Positions 4,154 through 61,040 of a stretch of DNA of 64,000 nt are shown one piece after another (position 1 is the first letter of the stretch; the number at the start of each line of letters is the position of its first letter). A program made the translations under genes and the position numbers. Origin of the DNA: Patescibacteria group bacterium (lineage in GTDB: Bacteria; Patescibacteriota; Minisyncoccia; Phycocordibacterales; DATDWN01). The stretch spans positions 144,979 through 208,978 of the forward strand of contig JAZKJH010000003.1 in NCBI GenBank assembly GCA_040384485.1. The letters are read 5' to 3'. Under the pieces are notes generated by a model. The model had not been told where the DNA came from and made no database searches. It saw nothing but the letters and a program-made list of their open reading frames with translations.

Positions 4154-6397
4154 TTAAGCAGTTGGTGTTGCAGGAGGGGTTTCTTTTGGTGCTGCAGCTT
4201 CTTCAGCTTTTGGCTTATCTGCATCAGACTCCTTAGCTTCTTCCTCTACTCTCTTCTTGGCCGCCTTCATGAGTTCTTCCATTGCTTTTTCTTCCTTACT
4301 CTTTCCTTGGAGAGCCTTTTTTGCAGCACTTGCAATTGCCCTTCTTTCACTCTGGTTTATTGGTGAGTTTGTAAGACCGGTTAATCCACCAATAAATTGA
4401 GCTGTACCCATAATACGTCCAGGATTAAGAGTTCTCTTTTCAACGGCTTCGACTCTATCAGTAAATACTTTCTTAAGCCTTGCAGCTTCAGATTTGTAGT
4501 TAGTTGCTTTGTTTTCCTCCGCCTTTTTAACAGCAGTCTCTGCGAGGGCAATATTTTCTCGCAATGTTTGCAAGCTATCTCTTTGTGACTTATTCCTGTT
4601 TTCTATTTGTTCTATTTGGTCTGCTATCTGCCTTCTCTCATCAGAATTTGTTGTTGATTGAAGGTTCATCCTCAACTCCTCTATTCTCGTCTCCCCTTCT
4701 TTTATAGATTTAGTTGCTGCTTTATTTTCTTCTTCCGCTTTCTTTTTTGCAGCCTCAGCAGCAGAGATTTCTGCATCAAATTTAGCCACTTCCACTTTGT
4801 CAGCGGCCTCCGCTTCCGCCTGCATATCCTCATTAGGTTTATATTTCTTAGCTGCTTCTTCAGCATCCTTTTTCTCCTTCTCCGCGATTGCCTTGAAGTT
4901 TAATTTCTTAGCGTCAGGAGCTTTGCCCATATCAACACCTGTTTGACTTATCAACGAAGACATTCCTGCTGAAGCTCTACCATCAAATGTGGCTGTTCTA
5001 GCTCTTTCTCCCCTATTCACTGTTATTTTCGCTAAGTTCCTTCCAACCAAACCTCCTGTTGCAGCTTTATCTTTCAAGTAATCACTGTTCGCTATCGCGT
5101 TACCTGCCCTTCCTATAGTGTTTCTACCAAGCGCTGCTGCACCTCCAAACACAGCTCCCCCAGCCAACTTACTTAATCGGCCAGTTGCTTGTCCAATAAG
5201 TTTTGAACCTTGGGTTGCAGAAGTTTTTGCCGTAATAAGGGTAAATATCGCTAAACCAATAATAATAGTGAAGTTAAAGAATAGAGATAGGAGGGACTGA
5301 GTTCCTATTGCCGCAGGACCTTGGGAAGCTCTAATAAAACCGTCACTAGAAAGCAGAGTAAGGACCACCCAGGTCATAAGCATAAACACTGGAGGAAAAA
5401 TGAGTTGTCCTTTCAAAGAGTCCCACCACTGGTTTGAGTAAGTTTTTATTGCTGGCAAGGCCATACCCATTATCGCAACAGGTGAAAGCATTAGTAATAC
5501 CAACAAAGTTACGTAACGGATTATAAAAAATATTGATATTGCAAAAAATACAAAAGAAGTAACTATAAACAGTATTGCACCCATAAGTTGTCCTACAAAC
5601 ACCTCCGGACCTGTACCGGCCACAGCAGCAAAAGTTTCACCTGAGTATATTTTATTCAAATCAAGTGCTTTCATGTACGCCACCGATAAACCAGAGATCG
5701 CCTCTCTGCTAGTATCACCCCCACCAGGTACAGAGAGTCTATCAGTTTCGTCCAATATGGCATTGTATAAGCCAATAGTTACTGCATTTGATGCGTCTAT
5801 CATAACTTTAGTGAAGAATAGTGAAAAGTTTACTAAGAGGGATGCAAGAACAAGAAAGCCCACAAACTTTTTCACATAATCTGTGCTAATCTGACCGATA
5901 ATCATCTGTATTCCATGCCAAACAAGCATGAATATAAAGACAATGTTTATCATGTCACGGATCAGTTTCCAGCCGGTATTTATACCTTCGAATTGATTAA
6001 TGCTGGTGGACATATCCATGATGGTTATATCCAAAACCATGTTCAATAAGCTTCCTGCCAGCCACAATATTCCAGAAGTTATACCAAGGATAAGTACACC
6101 AATACTTTCCAAGAAACAACCAAAAATCCATGTGGAAGGGCGGTAAAAAGTACAACCATCGCTAGGACCAGGCTGATTTGCCGCTCTCACCTCATTAACA
6201 GCTTCATCCGATCCGTCTTCGTCAAGTATGCATACCCAATTTGGGCCATCCAGGTCTCCATAGTTTACATATTTTCCAGGCTTGCCACCCTCGCCAGTAC
6301 AAGCCTGGCCGTTTACCTGGGCTAAGGAACTAGTAAAAGGAAAAAGTATTCCCGAAAAAACTATTCCTATAAAAATGTAACTGAAAAACTTTTTCAT
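4154..6397 (-). CDS. VirB6/TrbL-like polytopic membrane protein with a long C-terminal coiled-coil / KA-rich tail
   Basis: 747 aa; N-terminal signal/TM, then ~8 hydrophobic helices in the first ~430 aa, then an Ala/Lys/Glu-rich coiled-coil region. This architecture and its position next to a VirB4-like gene match VirB6-type channel subunits. Confidence 0.55.
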   Translation of the reverse strand: MKKFFSYIFIGIVFSGILFPFTSSLAQVNGQACTGEGGKPGKYVNYGDLDGPNWVCILDEDGSDEAVNEVRAANQPGPSDGCTFYRPSTWIFGCFLESIGVLILGITSGILWLAGSLLNMVLDITIMDMSTSINQFEGINTGWKLIRDMINIVFIFMLVWHGIQMIIGQISTDYVKKFVGFLVLASLLVNFSLFFTKVMIDASNAVTIGLYNAILDETDRLSVPGGGDTSREAISGLSVAYMKALDLNKIYSGETFAAVAGTGPEVFVGQLMGAILFIVTSFVFFAISIFFIIRYVTLLVLLMLSPVAIMGMALPAIKTYSNQWWDSLKGQLIFPPVFMLMTWVVLTLLSSDGFIRASQGPAAIGTQSLLSLFFNFTIIIGLAIFTLITAKTSATQGSKLIGQATGRLSKLAGGAVFGGAAALGRNTIGRAGNAIANSDYLKDKAATGGLVGRNLAKITVNRGERARTATFDGRASAGMSSLISQTGVDMGKAPDAKKLNFKAIAEKEKKDAEEAAKKYKPNEDMQAEAEAADKVEVAKFDAEISAAEAAKKKAEEENKAATKSIKEGETRIEELRMNLQSTTNSDERRQIADQIEQIENRNKSQRDSLQTLRENIALAETAVKKAEENKATNYKSEAARLKKVFTDRVEAVEKRTLNPGRIMGTAQFIGGLTGLTNSPINQSERRAIASAAKKALQGKSKEEKAMEELMKAAKKRVEEEAKESDADKPKAEEAAAPKETPPATPTA

Positions 6398-31086: not shown

Positions 31087-31115
31087 CAATGAATGCTTTT
31101 TAGTGCGGCTTACGG

Positions 31116-31224
31116 AACTGGGAAACCCACGGTTTTCCCAATCCTTCCTCCACGGAAAACTCCCGTTTTCCGACCCTTTCCCACCCGGTACCCGCAGCAA
31201 AAATAACAGAGTTATTTTTTTCTG
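31116..31224 (-). mobile_element. ~110-nt structured element inserted immediately 3' of tRNA-Gly(GCC), flanked by a ~12-nt duplication of the tRNA 3' end; copy 1 of 2
   Basis: Internal hairpins GGGAAACCCACGGTTTTCCC and CGGAAAACTCCCGTTTTCCG. The tRNA 3' terminus TGCGGCTACCGG (31225-31236) recurs as TGCGGCTTACGG at 31104-31115 on the far side. Nearly identical to 32182-32293 in inverted orientation. Confidence 0.5.
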
Positions 31225-56867: not shown

Positions 56868-58592
56868 ATGTCAAAATACTCAGCACGAGAAACAATTCCA
56901 GAAAATGTGGGAGAAGCGTTAAAAACCTATCATCCCTTCGTACAATCCCTCCTATACACTCGTGGAGTTGTGGATGCCGAAAATGCCGAAAGATTTCTAA
57001 ATCCTAAGTATAATGAGCATTTGCACGACCCATACTTACTCAAAGGAATGGATAAGGCAATAAAGCGAATACTCAAAGCAATTAAGGATGGAGAAAAAAT
57101 AGGAATATTTAGTGACTACGATGCAGACGGTATTCCTGGAGCAGTGGCACTTCATGATTTTTTTAAAAAGATTGGTTACCAGAATTTTGTAAATTATATT
57201 CCACTTCGTAATGAAGAAGGTTTCGGTCTTAACAATGATGCAATATGTAACCTAGCAGAAGATGGAGTAACTCTGATCATCACCATAGACTGTGGTATTA
57301 CAGACATAGAGCAGGTTGAGTGCGCAAATGAAAAAGGAATAGATGTAATCATTACTGACCACCATCTTCCTATGAAAAAGATTCCCAAGGCATTTGCCAT
57401 AGTAAATCCAAAACAAAAAGACTGCGAGTATCCAGACAAAAACTTGTGTGGGTCTGGAGTTATTTTCAAAGTGATTCAGGCACTTGTTTCAAAAATAAAG
57501 GATGATAAGAATTTTAATTGGAAAGAAGGACAGGAAAAGTGGTTACTTGATATGGTGGGACTAGCTACTATGTCGGACATGGTTCCTCTCATTGGGGAGA
57601 ATAGGGTTTTGTCATACTTCGGCATGAAGGTTTTGCAGAAGTCTCCTCGCGTGGGTTTACAGAAACTTTTTGCAATGCTCAAGATTAATTCACACACAGC
57701 TACCGAAGACGATATTGCTTTTATGATAACTCCGCGTATCAACGCCGCAAGTCGTATGGGAATACCTAGGGACGCGTTTCTTCTGCTTTCTACGGTGGAC
57801 GAAGTCGAAGCGGGGATGCTTGCAGAACACCTGAACAACAAGAATGACGAGCGAAAAGGTGTGGTGGCAAGTATGATAAAGGAAGTAAAAAGGAAATTAG
57901 AGTCGAGAAACGACCCAATGAAAAAAGTTTTAGTTTTCGGCAACCCAGAGTGGAAACCAAGTTTGCTGGGCCTTGTGGCTAACAGTTTTTCTGATGAGCA
58001 CGAAAGACCAACTTTTTTCTGGGGAAGAAATGGAGAGAGCGACGGAGTAATAAAAGGTTCTTGTCGTGCGGGAGGAAACACTAATATTGTGAAGCTTATG
58101 GAAAAAGTGAAAGATGTTTTTGTAGACTATGGTGGACATAAAGGAGCCGGGGGATTTTCATTATTGCAAGAGCATGTTCATACACTAGAAGATAGACTGA
58201 ACGAAGCCTATCTTGAGCTAATGGAAACAGAAGGTTTAGAAGAAGATATAATGGTCGACAAGAAACTTTCACTGGATGATGTATCTTGGGAAACGTGGGG
58301 TCATATAGAAAAGTTTGCACCTTTTGGGCTAGAAAATCCAAAACCTACTTTTATTTTTGAGAACATCCAAATAGACGCTGTAAAGTTGTTTGGTAAGGAA
58401 AAGAACCATCTGGAACTAAAATTTAAGAATGGAAAAGGAAAAGACGTAACAGCAATGGCCTTTTTCTCAAATCTAGATTCCTACGGAACCAAGCTCGAGA
58501 GGGTAAGCACAATAAACCTAGTAGCAACAATGGAAAAGTCAGTATTTCGTAACTTTCCAGAACTTCGCCTGCGAATAGTCGATATATTTTAA
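56868..58592 (+). CDS. recJ: Single-stranded-DNA-specific exonuclease RecJ
   Basis: DHH motifs (DYDADGI, IITDHH), DHHA1 domain GGHKGAGG, C-terminal OB region, 574 aa. Confidence 0.85.
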   Translation: MSKYSARETIPENVGEALKTYHPFVQSLLYTRGVVDAENAERFLNPKYNEHLHDPYLLKGMDKAIKRILKAIKDGEKIGIFSDYDADGIPGAVALHDFFKKIGYQNFVNYIPLRNEEGFGLNNDAICNLAEDGVTLIITIDCGITDIEQVECANEKGIDVIITDHHLPMKKIPKAFAIVNPKQKDCEYPDKNLCGSGVIFKVIQALVSKIKDDKNFNWKEGQEKWLLDMVGLATMSDMVPLIGENRVLSYFGMKVLQKSPRVGLQKLFAMLKINSHTATEDDIAFMITPRINAASRMGIPRDAFLLLSTVDEVEAGMLAEHLNNKNDERKGVVASMIKEVKRKLESRNDPMKKVLVFGNPEWKPSLLGLVANSFSDEHERPTFFWGRNGESDGVIKGSCRAGGNTNIVKLMEKVKDVFVDYGGHKGAGGFSLLQEHVHTLEDRLNEAYLELMETEGLEEDIMVDKKLSLDDVSWETWGHIEKFAPFGLENPKPTFIFENIQIDAVKLFGKEKNHLELKFKNGKGKDVTAMAFFSNLDSYGTKLERVSTINLVATMEKSVFRNFPELRLRIVDIF

Positions 58593-58622
58593 AAATACAT
58601 AGGTCTCACCTATGTATTTTTA
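58593..58622 (+). terminator. recJ terminator
   Basis: TACATAGGTCTCACCTATGTA followed by ttttt. Confidence 0.7.
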
Positions 58623-58705
58623 AAATATGGTGTAATGAGTGGAGTAAAAAATGGCCTTATAAGGCTATTTTTTATATACAGACACCACATTTTCAGCTTA
58701 AATGC

Positions 58706-58734
58706 TTGACAAATATATTTAAATATGTTAAGAT
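58706..58734 (+). promoter_or_regulatory. Sigma70-like promoter (TTGACA, 17 nt, TAAGAT) for the sRNA candidate
   Basis: TTGACA at 58706-58711, TAAGAT at 58729-58734. Confidence 0.45.
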
Positions 58735-58744
58735 TATAAAAGAA

Positions 58745-58975
58745 TTAACAAATGACCTGATGGGAAAGAACAGGGCTCAATCTTTCCTTGGATAACGCGG
58801 ACTGCCAGCATAATGGCTAAAAGTCCCCAAACACCGCCGCGATGAGGAACATCCTATGAAGCGTAGATGATTAAGTCGTCGGACTTGGAAGAGTTCGGCG
58901 CATAGGTAGGCTAAGGGGATTAGCCGCAAACCAACCCCACAACTTCCCGGCATCTCACAAGGATGCCGATTTTTT
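58745..58975 (+). ncRNA. Candidate structured small RNA (~230 nt, GC-rich) of unknown class with its own promoter and intrinsic terminator
   Basis: No ORF longer than a few codons. Long-range complementary segments (GGCTAAAAGTCCCC with GGGGATTAGCC; CCGCC with GGCGC; AGGAacaTCCT). Terminator CGGCATCTCACAAGGATGCCG followed by TTTTTT at 58946-58975. Confidence 0.45.
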
Positions 58976-59192
58976 ATATAAGAACTATATTTTAGGCCAT
59001 ATTCCCAGCCATCATGCCTGTTTTTCTTTACCTTGACATAGGGAAAATTAAGTGCTAATATTTAGCATAACTACCTTATATTTCCTCTTCTAAAGTTTTT
59101 TACGTTTCGTAAAGGATTTTGGAAGGGGAAATTTTGTTCCCCGAGTTCTTTACATGGCCTTAAAAAAGAGGCCCTTAACAGAGGGAGAGTGG

Positions 59193-61040
59193 ATGAAAAA
59201 GTTGAGTGAGTTGAAGGAAACAATGATGACGTTGTTTCTGGCCACGAAGTATTCTTTGGCATTTTGCTGGAGGAACAGTCGCGGCGCCACAATGTTTCGG
59301 ATAGTGATCGCAGTTTGCACAACACTACTGATGTATCTTGGAATCCAGTCAAACGGGTTCATGATCAACAGCGTTCAAAACTCCATTGGAAAGTTCAGCC
59401 CCACGGACAGCTTTTATAAAGTGTTCGTGGAGGGGGGTATTTTATACCCAGTTCTTTTCATTAGTGGAGTGATCTTGTTTGGGATGTTCTTGAGCAGGTT
59501 CAACTGGTATTACAGAAGTAAGTGGAACCAGACTCTGCGTTTCGCAAACCAGCGAGAATTGAACAACCACCGAGCAACTCTAGATATTGCACGATTCAAA
59601 AGTAAGGAGTACGACGATTTGTCCAAACGAATCCAAGAACTCCCTACATCGTGGCAAACGAGAATTTGGTTTTCTGATGAGATGCTAAGTCTCTTCACAA
59701 CTTCAGTTTCGTTTGTTTTGTTCGGGGCGTCACTTTTGTGGTACAAACCCGTTTACGCACTCATCCTGGTGGTGACTTCGTTGCCGATGATGTTCACAGA
59801 GTTTCGACTCGGAGCATTGTGGTGGGGTCTGTTTGAAAAAATGGTCCCTCACAACAAAAAGCGCTCTGTCTTGGAACGACCGTATCATGGGCCCACAGCA
59901 TTTGCCCAAGCATTGATGTGGAATCAGATGTCGCCACTTCGTCGAAAGATTGATATCAATATCGGCGAGGTGGTGAATGAGTACGACAGCATCAGGTCTA
60001 CAGTCCTTAAAAAGGAGATTGTCACAAACTTCTTTGCTATTGCTGGCCTTTGCGGGATTCTGGTGAACGAGATTTTGTTTACCGTTACTCACGCGGGGCA
60101 GATCGGAACCTTCACGGTTATCTTTGCTGCAGCCAAGACATTTCAGGGTAACCTGGAGTCGATTGTCACAGTTATTGCTAACCAGTGGAATAATGCCAAA
60201 GGAGTCATTCTCATCGAGAAGGATTTCCTGGGGCTAAAACCGCTTGTCCAGACTGAATACCCAGTGGTGCCAAGTTTCGAAAACACGCCGAGGATTCGGT
60301 TCGAAGACGTCAAGTTCATTTACCCAGAGAGTGAGAACGAAGTACTCAGGGGAGTGAACTTTGTTATCGAGCCCGGTAGTAAAACGGTGATTCTCGGGAA
60401 AAGTGGTAATGGCAAATCAACCCTTCTTCATCTTTTGATGCGACAGTACGACCCCACCTCAGGCAACATCTTTGTAGGCGAAACAAACCTACGAAGCATT
60501 GAGCCCAATGTTTGGTCAAATGTGGTTTCTGCACTTATGCAGGAGTACACAGTGCTGGAACGCAAAATTGGGGAGGAGATAGCTTCTTCTCGACTGGATG
60601 AACCGGTTGATATGGATAGGGTAGCCGAGTCCGCTCGGTTCGCACACTTCGATGGAGTTGTGAGTTCGGATCCGGATGGATACGAGTCTCAGATCGGCGT
60701 TGATTTTGGTGGCAGGGATTTCTCGGGTGGTGAACGTCAACGCCTCGCGTTGGCTCGAGTTCATTATCGAGGGACACCTATCCTTATTCTGGATGAGCCA
60801 GATTCCAAGCTCGATGCCGAGTCAGCTCAGAAGGTTATCGACCAAGTCTTCGCACTTTCCGGAGTGACGGTCATCATGATCACACATCATGTTTCTCGCG
60901 CAGAGAGATGTGACAAAGTCATTGTGATGGGCGAAGGTCGAGTAGTCGAAGAGGGAACTCCCTCTGAACTTCTGGCTAAAGGCGAAATCTATGCCTCAAT
61001 GCTCCAAAAAGACAGAGAGCGCGCAGGTCTTAAGTCATAG
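59193..61040 (+). CDS. ABC transporter, fused permease/ATPase (exporter)
   Basis: TM domain followed by Walker A GKSGNGKST, signature FSGGERQRLALAR, Walker B ILILDEPDS. Start is chosen at the Met preceded by GAGGGAGAG; the longer ORF starts at 59154. Confidence 0.8.
   Translation: MKKLSELKETMMTLFLATKYSLAFCWRNSRGATMFRIVIAVCTTLLMYLGIQSNGFMINSVQNSIGKFSPTDSFYKVFVEGGILYPVLFISGVILFGMFLSRFNWYYRSKWNQTLRFANQRELNNHRATLDIARFKSKEYDDLSKRIQELPTSWQTRIWFSDEMLSLFTTSVSFVLFGASLLWYKPVYALILVVTSLPMMFTEFRLGALWWGLFEKMVPHNKKRSVLERPYHGPTAFAQALMWNQMSPLRRKIDINIGEVVNEYDSIRSTVLKKEIVTNFFAIAGLCGILVNEILFTVTHAGQIGTFTVIFAAAKTFQGNLESIVTVIANQWNNAKGVILIEKDFLGLKPLVQTEYPVVPSFENTPRIRFEDVKFIYPESENEVLRGVNFVIEPGSKTVILGKSGNGKSTLLHLLMRQYDPTSGNIFVGETNLRSIEPNVWSNVVSALMQEYTVLERKIGEEIASSRLDEPVDMDRVAESARFAHFDGVVSSDPDGYESQIGVDFGGRDFSGGERQRLALARVHYRGTPILILDEPDSKLDAESAQKVIDQVFALSGVTVIMITHHVSRAERCDKVIVMGEGRVVEEGTPSELLAKGEIYASMLQKDRERAGLKS

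Follow-up and report, generated by a model that had tools for sequence, protein, structure and literature searches.

A candidate family of stand-alone, pseudoknotted small RNAs downstream of recJ in Patescibacteria

Patescibacteria (CPR) have tiny genomes, and their RNA biology is largely unknown. In the genome of one uncultured Patescibacteria group bacterium, a short G+C-rich segment lies between recJ and an ABC exporter gene, which raises the question of whether it encodes an RNA of its own or controls the gene that follows. The first-pass annotation of the 64,000-nt stretch of DNA analyzed here (the window) took the segment for a stand-alone structured small RNA and named a cis-acting riboswitch or attenuator for the exporter as the alternative. 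The small RNA reading held up: the segment has its own predicted promoter and terminator, homologues at nine other loci, compensatory base changes among them, no conserved open reading frame (ORF), and no match in Rfam. We consider it likely that the segment is a stand-alone gene for a structured noncoding RNA of ~230 nt, which would belong to a family new to Rfam and would act in trans.

A predicted transcription unit between recJ and an ABC exporter gene

The upstream gene, recJ (56868–58592), encodes DHH, DHHA1, and RecJ_OB domains. Its product is identical to RecJ of a "Patescibacteria group bacterium" metagenome-assembled genome (MAG), and its nearest relatives are found in Parcubacteria, Zambryskibacteria, Paceibacterota, and Minisyncoccia MAGs. 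The recJ stop codon is immediately followed by two AU-rich hairpins with T runs (~58596–58628 and ~58650–58675), which are probably the recJ terminators (58596–58675); the first of them is the source of a spurious weak match to mir-1277 in a permissive Rfam scan.

Downstream of these hairpins, the plus strand carries a predicted sigma-70-type promoter at 58706–58734, as the first-pass annotation had claimed. It consists of a −35 element TTGACA (58706–58711), a 17-nt spacer, and a TG-extended −10 element TAAGAT (58729–58734), and matches the consensus at 10 of 12 positions. Placing the start ~7 nt past the −10 element and the end in the T run gives an inferred plus-strand transcript of ~234 nt (58742–58975). 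G+C content across 58750–58950 is 0.50–0.52, compared with 0.24–0.36 in both flanks, in keeping with the ~230 nt of higher G+C reported earlier. The strong terminator said to end the segment is likewise present on the plus strand at 58948–58975: the hairpin CGGCATCTCACAAGGATGCCG (58948–58968) has eight pairs, five of them G-C, and is followed by ATTTTTT. Written out as DNA the terminator reads CGGCATCT-CACAA-GGATGCCG and then ATTTTTT, and as RNA CGGCAUCU-CACAA-GGAUGCCG and then AUUUUUU. Terminator-like sites are frequent in the surrounding 1-kb region (six observed vs. 0.9 expected from shuffled sequences). The RNA, present once in the window, would have a near-consensus promoter and a strong intrinsic terminator of its own.

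On the 3′ side, the window encodes a protein containing an ABC transporter ATPase (the exporter), followed by rnhA and comEC. The exporter had been given two possible start codons, at 59154 or 59193; the latter is most likely the true one, being preceded by GGGAGAG and in agreement with a public gene call of 615 aa.

Homologues in one Parcubacteria clade

Conservation in relatives had been named beforehand as a test of the small RNA reading, and homologues are present at nine other loci, seven of them full-length and two carrying the 3′ half only. The eight full-length members are those of the window, L020, L023, L053, L102, L103, L107/L108, and L112. The seven outside the window come from related Parcubacteria MAGs and metagenome contigs, and all lie downstream of recJ. 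An nhmmer search of relatives' recJ loci recovered the full RNA in L020 and L023 and the 3′ half in L016. A pattern scan of metagenomes (AGTCGTN{12,24}GGCGCAN{3,8}GGCTAAGG) returned 48 stretches. Two were real, and the others had matched by chance in DNA of high G+C; TAGGCTANGG...AGCCGNAANCNAACCC would, in retrospect, have served better as the pattern. The two real ones were L053, which shares the gene order PGK-HIT-recJ-RNA-rnhA, and L071, where only the 3′ half is present, downstream of rpoC. Looking up the closest RecJ proteins added L102, L103, L107/L108, and L112; this RecJ-guided retrieval yielded new carriers from 4 of 11 relatives, the remainder having either no RNA or a different RNA at the locus.

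A covariance model of the 3′ domain scores all ten loci at 75–102 bits and finds nothing else credible in 327 kb. The contrast in base composition recurs across the family (G+C 0.50–0.60 in members vs. 0.31–0.51 in their flanks), as does the promoter: TTGACA-16/17-TAnnnT is found at the expected distance in 7/8 full-length members, and in L023 a promoter of the same type lies further upstream and leaves a longer leader. Viral contigs were scanned twice. One scan was empty; the other returned 27 stretches, of which 11 have a weak profile match (E ~0.01–0.03) confined to the ~34-nt stretch defined by the pattern and the rest have none. BLAST searches against phage and plasmid records were also empty. 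The family is so far seen in one Parcubacteria clade only (Zambryskibacteria and Paceibacterota-like Patescibacteria), and the comparison set is small, with eight full-length and two partial sequences, some of them closely related.

Covariation supports a fold with four pseudoknots

The segment had been described as showing nested long-range complementarity. Its minimum free energy (MFE) as a single sequence is unexceptional (z = −1.5; 15/200 shuffles fold as well), so the argument for structure depends on a comparison with relatives. That comparison supports a structure, consisting mainly of local pseudoknots; the long-range part of the earlier claim drew little support. A long-range model suggested by MFE folding and RNAalifold (pairing GGG with CCC, GGYU with AGCC, and GCC with GGC) was rejected because its pairs never covary and compete with helices that do, and because the 3′ partners persist in L016 and L071, both of which lack the 5′ domain. 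Pairing of AUAACGC with GCGU... would close the middle region by another long-range helix; it is present in some members in no consistent register, and we do not claim it.

For the comparison, sequences were cut into homologous pieces, their reassembly to the real DNA was verified, and the resulting alignment (A4) was registered with N padding. In A4, 98% of 496 cells are paired over 60 pairs, a percentage inflated by hand-fitting of the alignment to the proposed structure, and 28/60 pairs change on both sides. When partners are slid by 1–3 columns as a control, 43–55% of cells are paired and 3–8 pairs have both-side changes, and 0/500 shuffles reach the observed values. As a check on the hand-fitting, RNAalifold was run on MAFFT alignments left unedited: from one it recovers P5, P6a, and the terminator, and from a plain MAFFT alignment of the 5′ domain alone it recovers P2, with 5/7 pairs compensatory. 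In a model-derived alignment (A7), the column-wise count for PK2 is unusable, as a one-column gap is set differently in four sequences. Comparison of relatives for covariation, as the first-pass annotation had proposed, came out in favor of a conserved structure, both in the compensatory changes of the hand-fitted A4 and in P2 from plain MAFFT.

The alignments support a fold with two domains, in which a 5′ domain of two successive H-type pseudoknots (P1/P2 and Px/P3) would be followed by a 3′ double pseudoknot. All elements lie on the plus strand. In the first 5′ pseudoknot (58756–58788), P1 pairs CCUG (58756–58759) with CAGG (58771–58774) and is invariant among members, while P2 (58762–58769 / 58781–58788; GGGAAAGA / UCUUUCCU) has compensatory changes in 6/8 pairs and occurs in the forms GGAGAGGG/CCCUCUCU, GGGAUG/CAUCCU, GGGAGAA/UUCUCCU, GGGUGGA/UCCAUCC, and GGAUGG/UCAUCU. 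In the second (58789–58826), Px pairs UGGA (58789–58792) with GCCA (58804–58807) and has the consensus UGGC/GCCA, with one pair changing from U-A to G-C in L107 and L112. P3 (58799–58803 / 58822–58826; GGACU / AGUCC) takes six different sequences among members and is compensatory in 5/7 pairs, and the loop of this pseudoknot contains an invariant GCC and a run of A. A linker follows (58827–58876) that varies from 30 to 53 nt among members and ends in a conserved UGA...AGU motif; member alignments show no consistent structure within it.

The 3′ domain contains the P5 hairpin (58877–58900; CGUCGGACU / AGUUCGGCG; compensatory in 5/9 pairs). Its loop, GGAAG (58887–58891), forms the 5′ strand of PK3 and would pair with CUUCC (58943–58947), the last five nucleotides before the terminator, thereby enclosing the P6/PK2 pseudoknot (58909–58939). 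PK3 reads UGAAG/CUUCA in L016 (compensatory) and GGGAG/CUUCC in L071 (with a G-U pair). P6 pairs GGCU (58909–58912) with AGCC (58922–58925) and is invariant; PK2 pairs (A)GGGG (58914–58918) with CCCC(A) (58935–58939), with an A-rich joiner, GCAAACCAA, between P6 and PK2. The PK2 consensus is GnGGG/CCCnC, found as GAGGG/CCCUC, GUGGG/CCCAC, and GGGGG/CCCCC, so that the second position is G-C, A-U, or U-A depending on the member. An inner hairpin, P6a, is deleted in the window and present in all other members, where 2/4 of its pairs covary; in the terminator stem, 7/10 pairs covary among members. Covariation cannot test P1 and P6, which are invariant, and it involves a single position in each of Px, PK2, and PK3.

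Coding potential

The segment had been reported to contain no ORF. This is correct for the plus strand, where no ORF of at least 15 aa lies inside the RNA; on the minus strand, a 58-aa ORF (58777–58953) had been overlooked, and it is not conserved. A small protein gene could in principle run along the plus strand from the AUG at 58752, within AUGACCUG, which is kept in 7/8 members, or along the minus strand, where ORFs of 58–60 aa are present in the window, L020, and L107. However, in the window and L053 the plus-strand frame (AUG ACC UGA) ends after only two codons, and plus-strand ORFs elsewhere in the family are inconsistent in frame and length. The minus-strand frame is broken in L102, L103, L053, and L112, and a Pfam search with the 58-aa ORF returned no match. 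Substitutions in the family keep base pairs rather than codons. The lack of ORF conservation on either strand contradicts a coding reading, which we regard as extremely improbable. A predicted promoter and intrinsic terminator of its own combined with no conserved ORF are what is expected of a stand-alone small RNA gene.

Comparison with known RNA families

Is this simply a known RNA that has diverged? We scanned the whole window with cmscan against the 4227 covariance models of Rfam 15 and repeated the scan for 58550–59250 at E ≤ 10 with permissive filters. The whole-window scan found four tRNAs and nothing else, with no match inside the RNA at gathering score. The permissive scan gave weak matches only, mostly to miRNA and snoRNA families, and the lone one inside the RNA is to NPPA-AS1_3, a model of a eukaryotic lncRNA (14.6 bits vs. 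a gathering score of 55; E = 1.1). Rfam scans of 18 related loci returned nothing relevant. We also found no description of the RNA in the searchable literature, nor any paper there on structured noncoding RNAs specific to Patescibacteria (CPR).

A separate element of the window may be another small RNA. It lies at 31100–31222, where ~95 nt of C-rich sequence between tRNA-Arg and tRNA-Gly is followed by a hairpin and a T run, and it folds better than 200/200 shuffles (z = −3.3). It has no match in Rfam, and its match to the 3′-domain model is at chance level (E = 0.18).

By eye, the first-pass annotation could not match the segment to RNase P RNA, tmRNA, SRP RNA, or 6S RNA, and the model-based searches agree: neither at gathering score nor at E ≤ 10 does a housekeeping RNA match, and a search for tmRNA with ARAGORN was negative for the window and for 11 related loci. 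Nonetheless, a highly diverged member of one of these classes, missed by Rfam models in a fast-evolving lineage, could account for the strong consensus promoter, for the high G+C relative to the genome, and for a complex fold with several pseudoknots such as tmRNA and RNase P RNA have. The details of the fold speak against each class. The RNA has neither the tRNA-like acceptor/T-arm pairing of the ends nor the tag ORF of a tmRNA. The GAAA-nGUCC segment takes part in a local helix, P3, and covaries with its neighbor, whereas P4 of RNase P RNA is a long-range pairing. P5 has a GGAA loop, but its stem is continuous and lacks the conserved internal loops of SRP (4.5S) helix 8. Finally, 6S RNA is a rod with a central bubble, whereas covariation here supports short helices in local pseudoknots. 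The distribution of the RNA among close relatives bears on the same question, as we describe below.

Relation to downstream genes

The conserved fold could instead be the aptamer of a riboswitch or attenuator, with the terminator at 58948–58975 serving as expression platform for the exporter, or for rnhA elsewhere. The conserved pseudoknotted RNA lies 0–7 nt upstream of an intrinsic terminator and on the same strand as the downstream genes. Covariation indicates a conserved, structured, aptamer-like fold, and several small aptamers typically contain H-type pseudoknots whose loops are A-rich. In an antiterminator search, however, the upstream RNA pairs with the 5′ strand of the terminator no better than do shuffled sequences, and the sites are not homologous between members. 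Terminator sequences vary freely in the family and the conserved core does not covary with them; a mutually exclusive antiterminator/terminator pair was not found.

The downstream genes are also inconsistent in class, and promoters of their own separate them from the RNA. The window and L103 have the ABC exporter next, L023, L053, L102, L107, and L112 have rnhA, and L020 has another ORF. In the window, the exporter has a consensus promoter (59033–59061; TTGACA-17-TAATAT) and a separate conserved leader 60–220 nt beyond the RNA. For rnhA, visual inspection shows a TGnTATAAT element within a few nucleotides upstream of the start codon. Differing downstream genes with promoters of their own make a riboswitch or attenuator unlikely, and together with the missing antiterminator they lead us to set aside the cis-acting alternative of the first-pass annotation as an improbable one. 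The RNA would instead work in trans, in its folded form, and would not regulate the exporter in cis.

A candidate for the real attenuator-like element of the exporter is its own leader, which we propose as a putative cis-regulatory region (59033–59195). L103 and L104 carry a nearly identical leader, which in L104 follows a different RNA. The leader comprises ~130 nt, with a long imperfect hairpin (~59082–59134) and, after it, a second structure extending as far as the ribosome-binding site GGGAGAG and the start codon (ATG, 59193); a small hairpin in it shows a compensatory change (GGCC...GGCC / GGUC...GACC). It has no match in Rfam. Upstream of rnhA, the TGnTATAAT element lies just before the ATG in L014, L010, L023, and others, which suggests that rnhA mRNA may be leaderless or near-leaderless in the relatives.

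Apparent turnover at the recJ–rnhA locus

The RNA is patchily distributed even among close relatives. L109, whose RecJ is 91% identical to that of L020, has no RNA, with recJ and rnhA 18 nt apart, and the two genes are adjacent in some other relatives. In L100, L101, and L104, whose RecJ proteins are 84–88% identical to those of carriers, the position downstream of recJ holds an unrelated RNA. These patterns are best read as patchy presence of the RNA together with its apparent replacement, at this locus in close relatives, by unrelated, predicted structured RNAs.

The unrelated RNA (type B) spans ~430–470 nt (L100 4785–5245, L101 4925–5365, and L104 4940–5365). Its promoter block (aaaatgcTTGACAatatttt) matches that of loci carrying the RNA described above (type A), and its terminator is its own; 26/113 of its predicted pairs are compensatory, a count that comes from three sequences only, and neither Rfam nor the tmRNA search gave a match. 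Other, mutually different G+C-rich units occupy the recJ–rnhA gap in L008 (~5740–6210), L015 (~5745–5930), and L004 (~5740–5890), and G+C-rich units also lie upstream of rnhA in L005, L114, and L115. For the L008 and L015 units, a consensus promoter and a terminator can be made out. Rfam scans of four of these units (L004, L005, L008, and L015) returned no match.

On this evidence, the recJ–rnhA gap behaves like a hot spot for putative RNA gene cassettes. No mobile-element genes were found near the RNA locus. Patchy distribution argues against a core housekeeping role, and both the absence from L109 and the unrelated RNA in L100, L101, and L104 are hard to square with a housekeeping RNA. Combined with the search results and the fold, these observations indicate that the RNA is probably not one, and we judge it highly improbable that a diverged member of the four housekeeping classes has been missed.

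The 3′ domain as a possible module

The two loci that carry the 3′ half only show the 3′ domain in other company. In L016 it stands behind a different structured 5′ part, and in L071 it directly follows the stop codon of a small protein gene, so that three different upstream parts are joined to this domain in all. In every case it lies 0–7 nt from the terminator hairpin. It looks like an autonomous, portable module, and because it always abuts the terminator, it may additionally provide a stable structure at the 3′ end. The small protein gene of L071 (1027–1308) has five homologues of 77–99 aa (P0122–P0126) with no Pfam domain, and a promoter TTGACT-17-TATACT lies at 918–945.

Function and relation to known systems

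RNA folds of such complexity are often ribozymes, riboswitches, or ribonucleoprotein cores, and an RNA of ~230 nt with four pseudoknots is unusually complex for its size. We favor a role for the RNA as a binding platform, most likely for a protein or small ligand, though it could possibly be a catalyst. A new class of self-cleaving or catalytic RNA, perhaps tied to the cassette-like turnover at the locus, is suggested by double pseudoknots that are nested and joined by invariant nucleotides (GGCU...AGCC, AAnCnAA, and UGA...AGU), a combination typical of small ribozymes, and by the patchy distribution and allele replacement at a single locus. Against this, the RNA matches none of the known ribozyme classes in Rfam, no mobile-element gene is nearby, and no repeat copies occur in the window, and we think a ribozyme improbable.

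More broadly, we raise as a tentative possibility that the RNA represents a new functional class, defined by the four-pseudoknot fold, by a portable 3′ domain that might be a new ligand- or protein-binding domain, a ribozyme, or a nuclease-resistant 3′ cap, and by a cassette-like recJ–rnhA locus at which RNAs replace one another. The patchy presence of the RNA, the other structured RNAs that close relatives have at this locus, and re-use of the 3′ domain suggest a fast-evolving accessory RNA function in these episymbionts. The model and the set of loci now make the patchiness, the replacement, and the re-use testable.

Several known systems share features with the RNA. The RNA shares with tmRNA a strong promoter and a series of H-type pseudoknots whose loops are rich in A. 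Unlike tmRNA, it lacks a tRNA-like domain, a tag frame, and pairing between its 5′ and 3′ ends, it finishes in a terminator rather than CCA, and at ~230 nt it is shorter than the usual ~350 nt of tmRNA. Riboswitch aptamers of the SAM-II, preQ1-II, and fluoride type are pseudoknots with terminator platforms. They resemble the RNA in their H-type pseudoknots, A-rich third loop, and intrinsic terminator directly after the fold, but the RNA interlocks four pseudoknots in ~200 nt instead of one, and it has no antiterminator and no conserved downstream gene class, the genes downstream having promoters of their own. Modular small RNAs with a conserved 3′ scaffold and small RNAs derived from 3′UTRs are known among the Hfq-dependent small RNAs of enterobacteria. 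These too combine a conserved 3′ module by the terminator with varied 5′ parts, as in L071, where the module follows a small protein gene, yet the module here is a double pseudoknot of ~85–100 nt and not a simple hairpin with a U tail.

We class the RNA as a new family of a known kind, the orphan structured noncoding RNAs of bacteria. Comparative genomics has revealed several that are lineage-specific, including the raiA motif RNA, OLE, and motifs named after phyla, among them Chloroflexi-1 and Dictyoglomi-1 (Rfam and the Breaker/Weinberg surveys). The RNA differs from these in having no match to them in sequence or structure, in the order of its helices, in its Patescibacteria host, and in a 3′ domain that recurs with other 5′ partners. 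Like them, it is a stand-alone unit that forms a G+C-rich island in an AT-rich genome, with a conserved, pseudoknotted structure backed by covariation, no ORF, and a narrow phylogenetic range.
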